From NCBI GenBank assembly GCA_020724805.1, contig DYGI01000001.1, positions 175,157-239,156 of the forward strand: DNA of 64,000 nucleotides. Reading direction: 5' to 3'. The notes below the pieces were generated by a model. That model was given only the letters and a program-made list of their open reading frames with translations. It was not told the origin of the DNA and did no database searches. The DNA is from Candidatus Microgenomatus sp. (lineage in GTDB: Bacteria > Patescibacteriota > Minisyncoccia > UBA6257 > GWB1-50-10). Position numbers and translations under genes: made by a program. Of the stretch, positions 1,738-54,443 are shown piece by piece (within the stretch, counting starts at the first letter, position 1; every line of letters begins with the position of its first letter).

Positions 1738-2193
1738 CTATTCAAGCACTTTATCAAGGAGCACGTCTATGTCGCTCGAGGAGCTTGCAGCTTCGAGTGA
1801 AGAGAATTCCGAGGAGAGCACGGAAGAATTCAAATGGGCTCCCTCAGTTTCGGTGATTTCGGCAATGGCGGACTCAAGCGTCCGTTCAGTCGAGGCTCGA
1901 TAGGTAAGTTCCTGAAGTTCAATATTGATAGGAAGTTCGGCGAGTTCTCCGGAGAGAAGTTCCTCGTTGAGCGAGGCGGAAAGGGTGGGTTTGGCGGGGA
2001 GCGAAAAGGTTGCCACGAAAAGGAACATAAGCGCGAATGTGAGCGCGCCCGCCCATTCAAGAGAGCGCCAGGGGCTTGCGGTGATGCGCGGTTCAAGCGC
2101 GGCAAGGAGACGCGTGCGACCGTGCGCCATAAGCGCAGGGTGCGGCCTTACGCGTTTCAAAGCTTTTAGTTGTGCGGCGATGTGATTCGTCAT
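1738..2193 (-). CDS. putative anti-sigma factor (single-TM membrane protein)
   Basis: 151 aa, one hydrophobic helix (ALTFALMFLFVATF). Start overlaps the sigma-factor stop (ATGA at 2190-2193), a typical sigma/anti-sigma coupling. No zinc-binding anti-sigma motif seen. Confidence 0.4.
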   Translation of the reverse strand: MTNHIAAQLKALKRVRPHPALMAHGRTRLLAALEPRITASPWRSLEWAGALTFALMFLFVATFSLPAKPTLSASLNEELLSGELAELPINIELQELTYRASTERTLESAIAEITETEGAHLNSSVLSSEFSSLEAASSSSDIDVLLDKVLE

Positions 2194-2744
2194 GTTCTTT
2201 CGCGAGGGTTCTTTTCGTGTAATTCTTTGAGCTTTTTCAGTGCGCGGTGCTGGATGACGCGAACCGCTCCTTCCGTTTTTCCCAGCGCTTCCGCGATCTC
2301 CTTGTTCGTCATGTCGTCCACGAATTTCATGAGGAGCACGTTTTGTTGGTCGTGCTCGAGATTGGTAAGCATGACCCGGACGTGATGAAGGTCAATTGCG
2401 GTATCCACCGCTTCTCCCATCCCATCAGGTTCCGAAAGCGCCTCTTCCGGGATAGCCTCGAGGGGTGCATGGGTCCTGGCGGTGCGGTAGTGGTCGATGA
2501 CCGCGTTTGTGGCGATGCGGTAGAGCCAGGACCCGAATGGGAACCCGCGTGATTCATAACGGTGGAGATTCTGCCACGCATTCATGAATATCTGGTGGGT
2601 CAGGTCCTCGGCATCCTCCTTCTGGCGCGTGCGGAGAAGCACGAACCGGTAGATGCGGGGCATATAGAGGTCATAGAGCGCCCCAAACGAGGCCGCGTCG
2701 CCGCCCTTTGCTTTCGAAATGAGCTCTTCTTCTCTTTCCCTCAT
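2190..2744 (-). CDS. RNA polymerase ECF-type sigma-70 factor
   Basis: 184 aa with sigma70 region 2 (YRFVLLRTRQKEDAEDLTHQIFMNAWQNLHRY) and region 4 HTH (MTNKEIAEALGKTEGAVRVIQHRALKKLKE). Confidence 0.85.
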   Translation of the reverse strand: MREREEELISKAKGGDAASFGALYDLYMPRIYRFVLLRTRQKEDAEDLTHQIFMNAWQNLHRYESRGFPFGSWLYRIATNAVIDHYRTARTHAPLEAIPEEALSEPDGMGEAVDTAIDLHHVRVMLTNLEHDQQNVLLMKFVDDMTNKEIAEALGKTEGAVRVIQHRALKKLKELHEKNPRERT

Positions 2745-2840: not shown

Positions 2841-2934
2841 CGGTTTCGGTAATAAATATAGCCCTTCGATGAACTCAGGGTACTTAGCCTGGCCCGCCAG
2901 TGTTTACACTGAGCAAGCGTAAGCGAGTCGAAGT

Positions 2935-3115
2935 GTGCGGGATGGGAGAGATCGGCTTCGCCTCTCGCTTCGCTCGGGCCCCTCGGTCATGAGTCCTCGG
3001 GGTCGAATGACTAGCCACCGCCTCGCCGTGCCTGCGGCACATGCTCCGGCGTTCGATTCTCCACGCGAGCCAAGCAGTTGGCTCGCTCATCCGCAATATA
3101 GAATGTACTTATTAG
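2935..3115 (-). repeat. tRNA-linked element, Gly copy (family member 1)
   Basis: About 180 nt immediately 3' of tRNA-Gly. Contains an inverted T-arm copy (plus-strand ctccggcgttcgattctcc) and a 22-nt hairpin gcgagccaagcagttggctcgc. Ends with a 15-nt direct copy (gtgcgggatgggaga, 2935-2949) of the tRNA 3' end (3115-3129). Homologous to the elements at 5776-5930 and 54222-54370. Confidence 0.6.
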
Positions 3116-3186
3116 TGCGGGATGGGAGAATCGAACTCCCGCTCTCAGTTTGGAAAACTGACGTTCTGCCACTAAACTAATCCCGC
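3116..3186 (-). tRNA. tRNA-Gly (anticodon TCC)
   Basis: Cloverleaf GCGGGAT-TA-GTTT-AGTGGCA-GAAC-G-TCAGT-TTTCCAA-ACTGA-GAGC-GGGAG-TTCGATT-CTCCC-ATCCCGC-A with a 4-nt variable loop. No encoded CCA. The loop could be mis-read as CCA (Trp), but the stem register gives TCC. Confidence 0.75.
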
Positions 3187-4831: not shown

Positions 4832-4903
4832 CCCCCCGTAGCACAATGGATAGTGCAGGGCTCTTCTAAGGCCTTGATGTGGGTTCGATTCCTACCGGGG
4901 GGA
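4832..4903 (+). tRNA. tRNA-Arg (anticodon TCT)
   Basis: CCCCCCG acceptor, D-arm GCAC-AATGGATA-GTGC, anticodon loop CTTCTAA, T-arm GTGGG-TTCGATT-CCTAC, CGGGGGG-A, no CCA. Confidence 0.8.
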
Positions 4904-4912
4904 CAAGCAAGG

Positions 4913-4934
4913 AAATATGCGAAAGGCATATTTT
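4913..4934 (+). terminator. rho-independent terminator after tRNA-Arg
   Basis: aaatatgc-gaaag-gcatattt plus T. Confidence 0.55.
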
Positions 4935-4957
4935 CGAGCGCGGGCGCCTGGCCGTAA

Positions 4958-4971
4958 GTACCGGGGACAAG
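4958..4971 (+). repeat. direct partial copy of the tRNA-Arg 3' end (mini version of the tRNA-linked duplication)
   Basis: gtaccggggacaag, versus tRNA 3' end ctaccggggggacaag about 65 nt upstream. Confidence 0.35.
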
Positions 4972-4987
4972 TAAGGGAATTAATCAC

Positions 4988-5725
4988 ATGTTTTTAACGA
5001 TTCTTGGCGCAAGCATAATCGGAAGTGTAGTTGCCCTTTCTGGAGGCGCGCTCCTGTTGTGGCGCGCGGAAAAAGCGCGGAAAATCTCGCTCGTCCTCGT
5101 GAGCTTCGCGGCGGGCGCACTTCTTGGCGCGGCGTTCTTCGACCTCCTTCCCGAGATGCACGAAGTGCTTCCCACGAGCGCGGTGTATGGAAGCGTGGTA
5201 GTCGGGATTCTCATTCTCCTTTTCTTCGAAAAATTTCTGAAGTGGTATCACTGTCACGACAAAACGGTGTGCGAGTATCACACATTCTCAAGCTCAATTC
5301 TTTTTGGCGATGCGGTCCACAATTTTCTTGACGGGGTCGCGATTGCCGCGAGCTTTTTTGTGAGTGTGCCGGTAGGAATTGCCACCACGGTCGCAGTGTT
5401 TTTCCATGAGGTACCTCAGGAAATAGGGGACTTCGGCGCACTTCTCCATGCGGGTTATTCGCGGGCGAAGGTGTGGTGGCTGAACGTCGCGACCTCACTG
5501 GCGACGCCAATCGGCGCCGTGCTCGCGTATTTTTTTCTCCCGTTCTTCCAAAATTTCCTCGGTTACTTCCTTGGAGTTGCGGCGGGAGCGTTCATTTACA
5601 TTGCGGTTTCCGACTTGATGCCCGAGATTCGGCATCACGCGGCGCCGAAGGAATTCCTCCATTTTTTCATGATCCTACTCGGCATCGTATCTATTATTCT
5701 TGTGGGACTGGTAGTGCCGGAGTAA
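4988..5725 (+). CDS. zupT: ZIP family divalent-metal (zinc) transporter
   Basis: 245 aa, multi-TM. HEVPQEIGDFGALL and HNFLDGVAIAASF signature motifs of ZIP/ZupT. Confidence 0.85.
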   Translation: MFLTILGASIIGSVVALSGGALLLWRAEKARKISLVLVSFAAGALLGAAFFDLLPEMHEVLPTSAVYGSVVVGILILLFFEKFLKWYHCHDKTVCEYHTFSSSILFGDAVHNFLDGVAIAASFFVSVPVGIATTVAVFFHEVPQEIGDFGALLHAGYSRAKVWWLNVATSLATPIGAVLAYFFLPFFQNFLGYFLGVAAGAFIYIAVSDLMPEIRHHAAPKEFLHFFMILLGIVSIILVGLVVPE

Positions 5726-5748
5726 AACCAGCAATTTGTATTTAGAAC

Positions 5749-5775
5749 AAAAAACCGCCATACGGCGGTTTTTTG
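5749..5775. terminator. bidirectional terminator (zupT / tRNA-Phe transcript)
   Basis: aaaaaccgcc-ata-cggcggtttttt, with an A-tract on one side and a T-tract on the other. Confidence 0.65.
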
Positions 5776-5930
5776 TCTTTGTGCCGCGGGAGGGAATCGC
5801 CTGCAAGTTCCTCTCTGCGGACTCGCAGGCCGCCCCTCGGTCGCATGCGCGACCTGCGGTCTTCGATTTCCGATCACGAGTCGCCCCGCGGCTCGCTTCC
5901 CGCGTGACTGCGTTCACTAGCGTTCTCTTG
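5776..5930 (-). repeat. tRNA-linked element, Phe copy (family member 2)
   Basis: 3' of tRNA-Phe. Ends with a 24-nt direct copy (tctttgtgccgcgggagggaatcg, 5776-5799, one indel) of the tRNA 3' region (5926-5948). Shares blocks with the Gly copy: gcccctcggtc(gc)atg, cctgcgg..ttcgatt(t/c)c. Confidence 0.5.
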
Positions 5931-6002
5931 TGCCGCGGGAGGGAATCGAACCCCCGACGCCAGCCTCTTCAGGGCTGCGCTCTACCACTGAGCTACCGCG
6001 GC
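5931..6002 (-). tRNA. tRNA-Phe (anticodon GAA)
   Basis: GCCGCGG-TA-GCTC-AGTGGTA-GAGC-G-CAGCC-CTGAAGA-GGCTG-GCGTC-GGGGG-TTCGATT-CCCTC-CCGCGGC-A; no CCA. Confidence 0.85.
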
Positions 6003-16046: not shown

Positions 16047-16406
16047 GTGAAAAGCCACCGGGAGTTGGAAGTTTGGAAAAGAAGCATGGAACTCGTAAAG
16101 AAAGTCTACGAGCTTACCAGTAAATTTCCCCCATCAGAGACGTGCGGAATCATAAGTCAAATCCGCCGTGCCTCCGTTTCTATTCCTTCGAATATCGCAG
16201 AAGGATATCAGCGTGGCTCTCGAAAGGAATATTTGAATTTCATAAGAATCTCTTTTGGATCTGGTGCAGAGCTCGAAACACAGCTTGAGTTGGCAAAAGA
16301 GCTTTCGTTAGCGCCCTCGAAGGATTTTGAGGTCCCAGAGCAACTTCTCAATGAGGCTATGCGGATGCTGAATGGACTTATCCACAGCCTCGCTTCTAGG
16401 CCCTAG
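16047..16406 (+). CDS. four-helix-bundle protein (23S rRNA intervening-sequence protein family)
   Basis: 119 aa, GTG start. ELEVWKRSMELVKKVYELTSKFPPSETCGIISQIRRASVSIPSNIAEGYQRGSRKEYLNFIRISFGSGAELETQLELAK matches the conserved core of this family. Confidence 0.8.
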   Translation: MKSHRELEVWKRSMELVKKVYELTSKFPPSETCGIISQIRRASVSIPSNIAEGYQRGSRKEYLNFIRISFGSGAELETQLELAKELSLAPSKDFEVPEQLLNEAMRMLNGLIHSLASRP

Positions 16407-52915: not shown

Positions 52916-54172
52916 ATGGCAAAGAAACGACGCACAAAGAAGAAAGTTCCGCCGAAAAAGATGGCGGTACCCCGCGTGAAAAAAGGGAAGGGCACGTTCA
53001 CGCGCATTAAGGTGGTGGGCGTGGGCGGCGGAGGAGGGAATGCGGTGACCCGCATGATGGCGGAGAGCGACCGCATCCGCGGCGTGGAATTCATTGCGGT
53101 GAATACCGACGCGCAAGACCTCGACCACGCGAGCGCGCATCGGAAGATATATATCGGGCGCGCACTCACGCATGGGCTTGGCGCGGGAATGAATCCGGAA
53201 ATAGGAAAGCAGGCGGCCGAGGAAAACCGTTCGGAACTTGGCGAAGCGCTTGATGGTGCGGACGTTATTTTTCTCACCGCAGGGTTCGGGGGAGGCACCG
53301 GCACCGGCGCGCTTCCGGTGATTGCCGAAGTGGCGCGCGAGAAGGGAATTCTCACACTCGCGGTTGTCACACGTCCGTTCACTTTTGAAGGTGGCCAGCG
53401 GATGACCATTGCGAACGAAGGTCTCGCACGTTTGAAGGATAAGGTGGATGCGTTGGTCGTTATTCCGAACGACCGGATTTTCAATATCATCGATAAAGAC
53501 ACTTCGGTGACTCGCGCGTTCGGTCACATCGACGACGTGTTGAAAAGTGCGGTGAAAGCGATTGCGGACCTTGTGAATGTGCCCGGCATCATCAATATCG
53601 ATTTCGCCGACATTAAAACGACGATGAAGGATGCGGGAACGACTTTGATTGGCATTGGCGTGGCTTCCGGTCCCGAACGGGGAGCGAAAGCCATGGAATC
53701 CGCCATCAATTCGCCCCTCCTCGAAACCTCAATGGAAGGGGCGCGCGGGCTACTTTTCAGCATCTCGGGCGGGCGCGACCTCAAGATGGCCGAGGTGCAC
53801 GACATTGCAAAAGCGGTGGCAGGGAATTTGGACCCTGGGGCACGCGTTATTTTCGGCGCATATTACGATCGCGGACTCTCCGAGAAAAGCATCAAAGTGA
53901 CGGTGATTGCGACCGGTTTCTCTGGGAGCTGGTCCGGAGGAAGCCGCCTTCCTCTCCAACCGCTCTTCGTGAAGGATATGGCTTCTCCCCCTGCGAGAGC
54001 AAAAAAGGAAACGCCGGCGGACTCACCAGCAGGGATGCGCGCGTCCGTCGGACGGGGAGTGGTCAGGGAAACAGATGAGGAGGCGGAGCGGGAAGAGCCG
54101 GCGTCTCCCGCGCCATCGAAAGAAGATACGTGGGATATCCCCGCATTTCTACGGAAGAAAAAAAGGAGATGA
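52916..54172 (+). CDS. ftsZ: cell division protein FtsZ
   Basis: ORF 52874 (TTG) trimmed to the first ATG after the ftsA stop. IKVVGVGGGGGNAV, tubulin signature GGGTGTGALPVIAEVARE, basic C-terminal tail. Confidence 0.95.
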   Translation: MAKKRRTKKKVPPKKMAVPRVKKGKGTFTRIKVVGVGGGGGNAVTRMMAESDRIRGVEFIAVNTDAQDLDHASAHRKIYIGRALTHGLGAGMNPEIGKQAAEENRSELGEALDGADVIFLTAGFGGGTGTGALPVIAEVAREKGILTLAVVTRPFTFEGGQRMTIANEGLARLKDKVDALVVIPNDRIFNIIDKDTSVTRAFGHIDDVLKSAVKAIADLVNVPGIINIDFADIKTTMKDAGTTLIGIGVASGPERGAKAMESAINSPLLETSMEGARGLLFSISGGRDLKMAEVHDIAKAVAGNLDPGARVIFGAYYDRGLSEKSIKVTVIATGFSGSWSGGSRLPLQPLFVKDMASPPARAKKETPADSPAGMRASVGRGVVRETDEEAEREEPASPAPSKEDTWDIPAFLRKKKRR

Positions 54173-54173
54173 T

Positions 54174-54200
54174 AAAAACCGCCCCCAGGGCGGTTTTTGT
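54174..54200. terminator. bidirectional terminator after ftsZ
   Basis: aaaaaccgccc-cca-gggcggttttt, a perfect 11-bp stem. Confidence 0.7.
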
Positions 54201-54221
54201 GTTTGCACTGGATATTTCGAA

Positions 54222-54370
54222 GTGTGCCTCCTGAAGGGGATCTCCTTCGCCTCTCGGCGCGCCGGCGCGCACTCGGGCTAGGCACCGCCTCGCGTGCCGT
54301 TCTTCTGAACGGCACAGTCTCCGGCGTTCGATCCCTGCCGCGCATCGAGCAGTCGATGCGCTAGTTGGTG
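54222..54370 (-). repeat. tRNA-linked element, Lys copy (family member 3, best conserved)
   Basis: 3' of tRNA-Lys. Direct 12-nt copy gtgtgcctcctg (54222-54233) of the tRNA 3' end (54368-54379). Blocks shared with the Gly copy: cttcgcctctcg, caccgcctcgc(c)gtgcc, ctccggcgttcgat, hairpin gcgcatcgagcagtcgatgcgc. Inverted T-arm copy ttcgatccctgc. Confidence 0.6.
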
Positions 54371-54443
54371 TGCCTCCTGCAGGGATCGAACCTGCGACCG
54401 TCTCCTTAAAAGGGAGCTGCTCTACCAACTGAGCTAAGGAGGC
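54371..54443 (-). tRNA. tRNA-Lys (anticodon TTT)
   Basis: GCCTCCT-TA-GCTC-AGTTGGTA-GAGC-A-GCTCC-CTTTTAA-GGAGA-CGGTC-GCAGG-TTCGATC-CCTGC-AGGAGGC-A; no CCA. Confidence 0.85.

Follow-up and report, generated by a model that had tools for sequence, protein, structure and literature searches.

In a 64,000-nt stretch of the genome of Candidatus Microgenomatus sp. (assembly GCA_020724805.1, contig DYGI01000001.1, positions 175,157 to 239,156; hereafter the window), the genes for tRNA-Gly, tRNA-Phe, and tRNA-Lys are each followed by a short GC-rich element belonging to a family of non-coding elements found across the candidate phyla radiation (CPR, or Patescibacteria). Members of this family have a selected fold on the tRNA strand, carry segments matched to the neighboring tRNA, and are present in some genomes and absent from their close relatives. 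An earlier note, made from the letters of the window, had drawn attention to the three copies; the feature is confirmed as real and is much broader than that note suggested. We tentatively interpret the elements, with somewhat less than even confidence, as non-autonomous units specific for tRNA 3' ends, selfish or domesticated, whose product would be a structured RNA co-transcribed with the tRNA.

Of the seven tRNA genes that ARAGORN detects in the window, three have an element directly 3' and on the same strand, starting 1-3 nt past the discriminator base. A covariance model (R1), with a seed of 89 copies of which 87 come from other genomes (the Gly and Lys copies of the window are in the seed, the Phe copy is not), was run over the whole window with filters off. 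It detects exactly three elements, behind tRNA-Lys (109.3 bits, E 4e-29, 54222-54366), tRNA-Gly (75.4 bits, E 1e-19, 2933-3091), and tRNA-Phe (25.0 bits, E 1e-5, 5778-5901), and the next-best match reaches 9 bits. The homology that had been proposed for these three elements is thus confirmed, and the scores qualify the divergent Phe copy as a genuine member of the family and disqualify an insert behind tRNA-Arg. The elements of the window measure 124-159 nt as modeled and ~150-180 nt with the spacer. The 14-mer ATCGAACGCCGGAG, previously reported as identical in the Gly and Lys copies, and the shared block GCGAGGCGGTGsCTAG occur in the window with zero mismatches at these two elements only. 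Each element also carries the predicted terminal repeat of its tRNA's 3' end, of 15 nt for Gly (2935-2949, identical to 3116-3130), 21 nt for Phe, and 12 nt for Lys. When the whole window is compared with Rfam 15 at gathering score only tRNAs pass, and 350-nt element regions return only noise (<=13 bits) at E <= 10. We found no description of the element in the literature, our coverage being incomplete and a prior description possible; the closest paper deals with group I introns that interrupt CPR tRNAs at the anticodon loop (PMC13011429).

The family was delineated by searching one genome per GTDB species for the pattern ATCGAACGCCGGAG-N8-38-GAGGCGGTG (23 bases, exact). This pattern occurs at at least 117 loci in species representatives, nearly all of them Patescibacteria of many classes (Paceibacteria, Saccharibacteria, Uhr-, Kaiser-, Woese-, Magasanik-, Taylor-, Portnoy-, Jorgensen-, Kerfeldbacteria, and others), one match in an Acidimicrobiales coding region being a chance match. 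Among the matches listed, 98 of 127 have a tRNA upstream on the same strand, mostly ending 40-85 nt away, and these host tRNAs represent 15 specificities, most commonly Arg, Gly, Glu, Ala, Lys, Pro, and Gln; further copies abutting tRNA 3' ends, which the earlier note had proposed to look for, are therefore plentiful. The other matches mostly lie behind tRNA-like T arms missed by ARAGORN, represent second units in tandem, or are cut by contig ends. In 100 pattern loci, the covariance model returns 125 matches (E <= 0.001), including copies without the exact pattern, and family copies score up to 149 bits. Three of the seven tRNAs of the window bear an element, as do 120 of 247 in loci chosen for containing one, a fraction that is biased upward by this selection; in the same loci, none of the 16 tRNAs for Thr, Tyr, or Val does. 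Tandem arrays and 100%-identical cores exist within genomes.

Several observations were made alongside this survey. Upstream of the elements in L048, L055, and L057 lie T arms with acceptor 3' ends, from tRNAs missed by ARAGORN that may correspond to the tRNA-Asn/Asp genes with introns described in Patescibacteria (PMC13011429). Canonical elements are also found on two contigs binned as non-CPR, L005 (labeled Bdellovibrionales) and L069 (labeled Gammaproteobacteria), both of which are probably mis-binned CPR. Variant or different structured inserts stand behind other tRNAs, often in tandem with canonical copies (L020 3559-3685, L072 702-842, L036 ~60-160, L106 ~2830-2950); one type has cores with ATCGAAAAGCGCAG..CGAGCTGGGG or GTGAAGGCGGAG..CGAGCCGGGG, another a long palindrome around GGCG..CCGCCTAGG.

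Read along the tRNA strand, an element consists of a spacer, an antisense copy of tRNA positions 73-66, a hairpin (hp1), an antisense copy of positions 65-53 ending in AUCGAAC, P2, a GUG junction, P3, CGAU, and finally a sense copy of the tRNA end. P2 pairs CGCC with GGCG around a GGAG/CGA loop with tandem G.A pairs and includes a hairpin, P3 is a long irregular hairpin running from sCyAG-N to N'-CGmrGs, and P1, in which GGAAUCG pairs with CGAUUCC, closes a three-way junction of P1, P2, and P3. In the 42-pair structure of 89 sequences, 89.2% of cells are paired, compared with 70.5% after shuffling and 34-43% when the partners are slid, and the covariation score of 0.481 (0.159 in shuffles) is exceeded in none of 500 shuffles. 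The hairpins singled out as conserved in the Gly and Lys copies are indeed compensatory stems around a CTGC loop (3086-3065 and 54361-54340), and the compensatory changes that one would look for in them exist, in all six pairs of hp1 (85% paired) and, according to RNAalifold, as double changes in 25 of the 32 pairs overall. Helix 7, in P3, is 97% paired with double changes in 8 of 10 pairs, and across copies the N:N' pair of P3 is CG 41 times, AU 32 times, GC 12 times, and UG four times. Mutual information reveals nested helices only, with the tandem G.A pairs exchanging with Watson-Crick ones, and no covariation that would indicate a kissing loop or pseudoknot between the loops of hp1 and hp2.

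The fold belongs to one strand. In 91 of 94 copies the tRNA strand folds with a lower energy than the complementary strand (mean difference 6.2 kcal/mol), which designates it as the functional one, either as RNA or, less likely, as single-stranded DNA. The elements thus possess the compensatory helices on a single strand by which a structured non-coding RNA is recognized generically. Moreover, the Gly element of the window and its orthologue in the relative L206 differ in hp1 by four double substitutions and in the base helix of P2 by one, and hence the fold is under selection at a single locus. The elements fold on the tRNA strand into a conserved RNA-type structure, kept across CPR classes.

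Set in this scaffold are three segments matched to the neighboring tRNA, namely antisense to positions 66-73 on the 5' side of hp1, antisense to positions 53-65 on its 3' side, and sense to positions ~57-73 on the 3' side of P3. With shuffled tRNA partners as the control, the sense repeat matches at 15 of 15 positions in 53% of real neighbors and 0% of shuffled ones, the T antisense (60-65) at five or more of six positions in 69% versus 13%, and the acceptor antisense (66-73) at seven or more of eight in 32% versus 1.3%. The acceptor antisense always lies 24-26 nt 5' of the T antisense, just before hp1. An inverted copy of the T loop, as first described, is therefore present but is not a unit of its own, since it belongs to a longer stretch antisense to the tRNA 3' strand, which a hairpin interrupts. 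The sense repeat varies from 8 to ~50 nt in length and always starts in the T loop. Complementarity often extends into the trailer, giving long palindromes that resemble bidirectional terminators, and excludes CCA where the gene lacks it.

Which copy of the tRNA the antisense follows can be read from two kinds of position. Where a tRNA stem has a non-Watson-Crick pair (including G3.U70 of a tRNA-Ala), the base in the element is complementary to the 3' strand in 33 cases and equals the tRNA's own 5'-strand base in three; the element is therefore neither a decayed tRNA copy nor a mimic of identity elements. Of the informative positions, at which the repeat has departed from the tRNA, 60 show an antisense complementary to the tRNA and 5 one complementary to the repeat. 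The conserved fold of the tRNA strand is something that a passive att scar would not explain. Copies with a perfect repeat tend to have a poor acceptor antisense and vice versa; a repeat of at least 14/15 and an acceptor antisense of at least 7/8 coincide in 13 of 98 copies (~13%), so that a complete acceptor-plus-T minihelix is available in only about one copy in eight.

Alleles without the element were obtained for all three tRNAs from syntenic contigs of Brennerbacteria, found through homologues of the ZIP transporter (4988-5725) and FtsZ with 78-87% protein identity; RsgA relatives in metagenomes, another route to such empty sites, do not keep synteny and yielded none. At tRNA-Phe, only the window genome has the element, and in L201, L202, and L204 the tRNA runs straight into the terminator. 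At tRNA-Lys, again only the window genome has it, and in L209, L210, and L211 the tRNA abuts a terminator common with ftsZ. At tRNA-Gly, the window shares its element with L204 and L206, and L202/L203 have a clean empty site, in which the tRNA 3' end is directly joined to the block that follows the repeat in the window (CACTTCGA...CAGTGyAAAC). Such clean filled and empty sites identify the elements as discrete insertion or deletion units without a recombinase, and not as decayed tRNAs or plain terminators. The proposal of a discrete insertion unit with no recombinase inside is supported. Two ideas that had accompanied it are not. At tRNA-Lys, the repeat is followed by a 24-nt tail that is absent from all three element-free relatives and hence lies within the insert, which makes this repeat internal and not an att-like or target-site duplication at the edge. 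A trailer or termination module of the tRNA, the other suggestion, is at odds with the native terminator, which persists downstream of the element in filled sites. At the three window loci, each element sits between the tRNA and this native terminator, and none of the three has a terminator between tRNA and element.

The Lys tail resembles the sequence after tRNA-Gly, and other genomes have it too, behind the 3' ends of tRNAs or of tRNA-like sequences. Its motif, CTTCGA-N(5-20)-CTCAG[GT]G[TC]AA[AG]C, is found directly after such ends with or without a core (window 2902-2934 and 54201-54223, both on the minus strand; L202 3148, L051 7129 and 7583, L008 6332, L125 213, L158 2024 and 6134) and is loosely like tRNA positions 1-21. 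At tRNA-Arg (4832-4904), which had been thought to have a duplication only, the 14-nt repeat of the tRNA 3' end is real but terminates an insert of ~50 nt (in 4905-4970, plus strand) made of a hairpin (aaatatgcgaaaggcatattt) and a GC-rich stretch; this insert, missed by model R1, is a different small element outside the family, present also in L201 and absent from L202 and L206. Compared with the window and the other relatives, the tRNA-Phe gene is inverted in L206 (3583-3655) and L207 (1061-1133), in the same place between the ZIP transporter and the next gene.

The elements contain no gene. When 974 open reading frames (ORFs) lying no more than 3 kb from ~115 elements were clustered all against all, the families obtained were housekeeping ones only (IF-2, Mur ligase, CCA-adding enzyme, PBP, and HU among them), with no recurrent linked gene. 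A Pfam scan of ~50 ORFs of the window revealed no integrase, transposase, reverse transcriptase, IS110, or Nop-domain protein, and 2.9 million viral contigs of IMG/VR contain no match to the element. Large serine recombinase genes do abut tRNA-Arg and lie near tRNA-Asn in some relatives (L204 2150-3631, L209 6150-7212, L211 5568-7196), L204 having a rve-type transposase in addition; these insertions are absent from the window and are unrelated to the elements.

How might such an element exist behind a functional tRNA? In the reading that we tentatively prefer, it would be transcribed as the 3' trailer of its tRNA and then be separated from it by tRNA 3'-end processing, presumably of the RNase Z type because these tRNA genes lack CCA. 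The shared strand and the position ahead of the terminator in the three window loci provide circumstantial support for transcription. Spread among tRNA loci would occur by a copy or recombination process using the near-universal T-loop sequence, which is inverted at both ends of the core, and the tRNA-specific extensions would be acquired or kept up locally. The RNA fold may be needed for propagation, or may keep the read-through transcript from disturbing tRNA maturation.

A number of points weigh against this interpretation. We infer the transcription and processing of the element, and in 33 of 98 copies a T-run, often with a terminator-like palindrome, stands between tRNA and element and would limit read-through. 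In L051, 100%-identical cores behind tRNA-Arg and tRNA-Ala, 450 nt apart, are flanked by differing hp1 and spacers, which suggests gene conversion of old copies and not fresh insertion. The internal position of the Lys repeat is predicted by no simple insertion model. Mismatches between antisense and tRNA are of the G.U type in 28 cases and of the A.C type in 21, and with no excess of wobble pairs, selection on RNA pairing cannot be told apart from DNA-level correction between nearby inverted repeats. The exact conservation of the core across CPR classes suits a host function at least as well. We know of no mobilizing enzyme. Group II introns, for their part, were not reported from 95 complete Patescibacteria genomes (PMC13011429). 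Staggered-cut target duplication, Campbell-type integration of a circle, and crossover by a T-loop integrase were each considered, and none explains jointly that the element changes tRNA type without killing the tRNA, that a hairpin lies within the antisense, and that the Lys repeat is internal.

The foremost alternative, possible although in our view rather unlikely, is that the elements benefit the host as an ancient CPR non-coding RNA linked in cis to the tRNA, made from a dicistronic precursor, released by RNase Z, and often lost through the repeats. Its antisense segments would either regulate the neighboring tRNA or pre-tRNA or guide its modification, processing, or quality control. Such a role would account for the core sequence and fold kept across CPR classes, for the compensatory changes between orthologous copies, and for the invariable placement on the tRNA strand, ahead of the native terminator at the window loci. 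It would also fit an antisense that is Watson-Crick complementary to the real 3' strand of the tRNA (33 versus 3) and tracks the tRNA over the repeat (60 versus 5), and whose interruption by a hairpin gives it a guide-pocket topology; the precise loss at tRNA-Gly in L202 points the same way. However, only a minority of tRNAs bear the element, and which ones do varies between close relatives. The Phe and Lys copies are each found in one genome with three empty relatives, for which gain is more parsimonious, and tandem arrays and decayed repeats are common. The pairing of antisense and tRNA shows no tolerance of wobble, the complementarity continues into the non-functional trailer, and no partner protein is known.

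An unlikely variation on both themes is a programmable RNA, in which hp1, P2, and P3 form the conserved scaffold and the guide segments, re-matched to each neighboring tRNA, would direct a CPR protein to the 3' end of this tRNA or of its gene. The outcome could be the copying of the element itself into tRNA loci, as an RNA-guided mobile element with its recombinase in trans, or an action on the tRNA by RNA-guided modification, processing, or protection; to our knowledge, the latter would have no precedent in bacteria.

We consider it improbable that the elements are remnants of the kind known as cis-mobilizable elements (CIMEs), with the repeat as attL/attR of a tyrosine integrase of the T-loop class and the ~150 nt as a leftover arm of an integrative element, mobilized in trans by the integrases of full-length relatives. 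Williams reportedly found in 2002 that integrative elements in tRNA genes show repeats of variable length from the T loop to the 3' end, and the repeat here does begin in the T loop, reach or pass the tRNA 3' end, and vary in length. Presence and absence are clean, and the large serine recombinases of relatives adjoin tRNA-Arg and tRNA-Asn. Direct repeats lie at both edges at Gly and Phe, but the 24 extra nt at Lys put the repeat off the edge of the insert. One core is found behind 15 specificities, whereas conservative site-specific recombination would leave chimeric, dead tRNAs upon a change of target, and the core has strand-specific covariation of the RNA type. No integrase, and no recombinase-bearing full-length relative, was found in the neighborhoods of ~115 loci, in the window, or among the 2.9 million viral contigs.

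Distinctly improbable, too, is a folded single-stranded DNA recombination site, in which the sense/antisense pair would mimic the tRNA gene as target of a host recombinase. Integron attC sites and the attP(+) hairpin of CTX phage are sites of this kind. A strand-specific fold with G.T and tandem G.A pairs and bulged bases, a core flanked by inverted and direct copies of the target, and the lack of a recombinase in the element would all agree with it. Yet sense and antisense are both well matched in only 13 of 98 copies, the antisense keeps to the tRNA where tRNA and repeat differ, the core sequence is much more conserved than in attC-type sites, and no link to integron integrases or Xer/dif was seen. 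Finally, decayed tRNA pseudogenes, local tandem duplications of tRNAs without a shared backbone, or chance resemblance are effectively refuted, for although the 3' end copies the tRNA and some copies could form an acceptor-like stem, a ~100-nt core unrelated to tRNA and scoring up to 149 bits is common to 15 tRNA types, the 3'-strand complement prevails 33 to 3 over the tRNA's own 5' strand, and neither ARAGORN nor the Rfam tRNA model detects the elements.

Table 1. Positions in the window of the three element-bearing tRNA genes, their elements, and adjoining features.
Feature	Positions	Strand	Basis or remark
tRNA-Gly(UCC), host of element 1	3115-3186	-	ARAGORN; Rfam tRNA model 70.8 bits
tRNA-Phe(GAA), host of element 3	5930-6002	-	ARAGORN; Rfam tRNA model
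tRNA-Lys(UUU), host of element 2	54370-54443	-	ARAGORN; Rfam tRNA model
Element 1 (Gly)	2935-3114	-	spacer, antisense, hp1, core, tRNA 3'-end repeat
Gly, acceptor 3'-strand antisense GCGGATG	3088-3094	-	read from sequence; placed per family rule
Gly, hp1, 9-bp stem, CTGC loop	3065-3086	-	sequence and family covariation
Gly, GGAGAATCGAAC, exact antisense of tRNA-Gly 53-64, P1 5' strand	3051-3062	-	
Gly, P2: CGCC / GGAG internal loop / hairpin GTGCCGCAGGCAC / GGCGA / GGCG, then junction GUG	3016-3051	-	
Gly, P3, long irregular hairpin (GCTAG...GAGAGGCGAAGC), with a 45-nt lineage-specific expansion	2955-3015	-	covariation
Gly, CGAT + C + TCTCCCATCCCGCAC, sense T-loop 3' part to tRNA position 74, P1 3' strand	2935-2954	-	
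Gly, tail block ACTTCGA...CAGTGTAAAC, directly after repeat	2902-2934	-	
Element 2 (Lys), including 24-nt tail	54201-54369	-	covariance model; sequence
Lys, hp1	54361-54340	-	stem around CTGC loop
Lys, antisense GCAGGGATCGAAC	54338-54326	-	
Lys, P2/P3	54326-54243	-	GAGAT 54242-54238 closes P1
Lys, repeat CAGGAGGCACAC, 12 nt	54233-54222	-	
Lys, tail, 24 nt, CTTCGAAATATCCAGTGCAAACAC	54223-54201	-	past the repeat
Native bidirectional terminator (aaaaaccgccctgggggcggttttt) between ftsZ and tRNA-Lys unit	54172-54197	.	orthologous to L209-L211 terminators
Element 3 (Phe), divergent subfamily	5779-5929	-	covariance model; sequence
Phe, acceptor antisense GCCGCGGG	5892-5885	-	
Phe, GGAAATCGAAG	5871-5861	-	then P2/P3
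Phe, repeat CGATTCCCTCCCGCGGCACAA, 21 nt	5799-5779	-	
Intrinsic terminator after Phe element	5746-5766	-	orthologues directly follow tRNA-Phe in empty sites

Elsewhere in the window, three features deserve mention. Upstream of a sigma-70-family (ECF-size) gene at 2190-2744 (minus strand) lie a palindrome, TGTAACGTTACA, and nearby GTTACAAGCGG (2807-2818 and 2830-2843); both are conserved in four syntenic relatives and may serve the sigma factor gene as operator or leader. At 16047-16406 (plus strand) is encoded a 119-aa protein of the 23S_rRNA_IVP / bAvd-like four-helix-bundle family, whose fold is that of the accessory protein of diversity-generating retroelements; the scanned ORFs of the window (>=110 aa) include no reverse transcriptase. 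Between ~26000 and ~38000, the GC content drops from ~0.56 to 0.41-0.49 over a polysaccharide cluster with glycosyltransferase, methyltransferase, and radical-SAM genes that is followed by asparagine synthase, flippase, and sugar transferase genes; no mobile-element genes were found in this stretch.

If our preferred interpretation is true, a sizeable share of tRNA genes across a bacterial superphylum carries an unrecognized structured RNA appendage, which would form a new class of RNA-structured selfish or domesticated elements beside group I and II introns, retrons, and bridge RNAs. It would also offer a new system in which to study how sequences come to match a neighboring gene, and would bear on tRNA maturation where the RNA-processing machinery is minimal. 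In practice, repeats flanking tRNAs in metagenome-assembled CPR genomes should not be taken as prophage att sites, the covariance model can serve as a marker of CPR contigs, and the filled and empty alleles are ready constructs for experiments.

Compared with known systems, the element fails at least one defining test of each family checked and matches no catalogued RNA family. It resembles CIMEs in its small size, non-autonomy, site at the tRNA 3' end, repeat from the T loop to the 3' end, and presence or absence among strains, but differs from them in having one core behind 15 tRNAs, covariation of the RNA type, an extra antisense copy, and no associated integrase family. Correia/NEMIS, REP/BIME, ERIC, and RUP repeats are likewise short, multi-copy, non-coding, hairpin-forming, and patchy among strains, and are often co-transcribed with adjacent genes. 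In contrast to such repeats, which resemble miniature inverted-repeat transposable elements, or MITEs, the element has neither the terminal inverted repeats of a parent insertion sequence nor a target duplication of fixed length; it stands strictly behind tRNAs, on one strand, with a three-way junction and conserved tandem G.A motifs, and spans a superphylum and not one genus. We rejected identity with a MITE on the grounds that the repeat varies from 8 to ~50 nt, that the inverted ends are T-loop sequence, and that the window has no transposase, and a phage origin on the IMG/VR result.

Among structured RNAs associated with tRNAs, plant dicistronic tRNA-snoRNA genes, released by RNase Z (cited in PMC12045711, refs 66-67), similarly give a structured small RNA from the precursor of a tRNA, as the element would if co-transcribed. 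The box C/D guide in the intron of archaeal tRNA-Trp likewise carries antisense to that very tRNA. Unlike both, the element is bacterial, has no known partner protein, and includes an additional sense copy of the tRNA end. By inspection (no formal motif search was made), it has no RUGAUGA/CUGA or ACA box of a C/D or H/ACA guide; its tandem G.A pairs do not make a K-turn, the bulge being 1-2 nt and not adjacent, also by inspection. The group I introns of Patescibacteria (PMC13011429) resemble what the element would be in our preferred reading, being selfish structured RNAs, unusually common in CPR tRNA genes, with a fold that keeps the host tRNA functional and an internal guide that pairs with flanking tRNA sequence. 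However, those introns lie in the anticodon loop (35/36) and match Rfam Intron_gpI, whereas the element follows an intact tRNA, has a core of only ~100 nt with two hairpins supported by covariation, and has no Rfam match at E <= 10, Intron_gpI included, so that we rejected this identity. A hammerhead was rejected for lack of a motif or model match, and a retroviral-type primer-binding site for mature tRNA because the antisense runs into the genomic trailer and not into CCA.

Two further comparisons concern what the matched segments build. Some copies can form an acceptor-plus-T minihelix ending in the discriminator, as do tRNA-like structures (the tRNA-like domain of tmRNA, mascRNA, YrlA, and the viral tRNA-like structure, TLS), except that in the element this minihelix is complete in ~13%, copies the 3' strand of a neighbor, and has the core in place of the T loop. 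Tas systems occur in Parcubacteria (PMC12045711), but the ~50 ORFs of the window and the top-10 clusters of neighboring genes include no IS110 or Tas/Nop gene, on which basis we rejected an IS110 bridge RNA or TIGR-Tas system. The element also differs from bridge RNAs and TIGR tigRNAs in that its two matched segments are complementary to each other and not adjacent, with no box C/D and no arrays of 36-nt units; what it has in common with them is a structured scaffold that holds short, variable segments matched to both strands of a DNA target.

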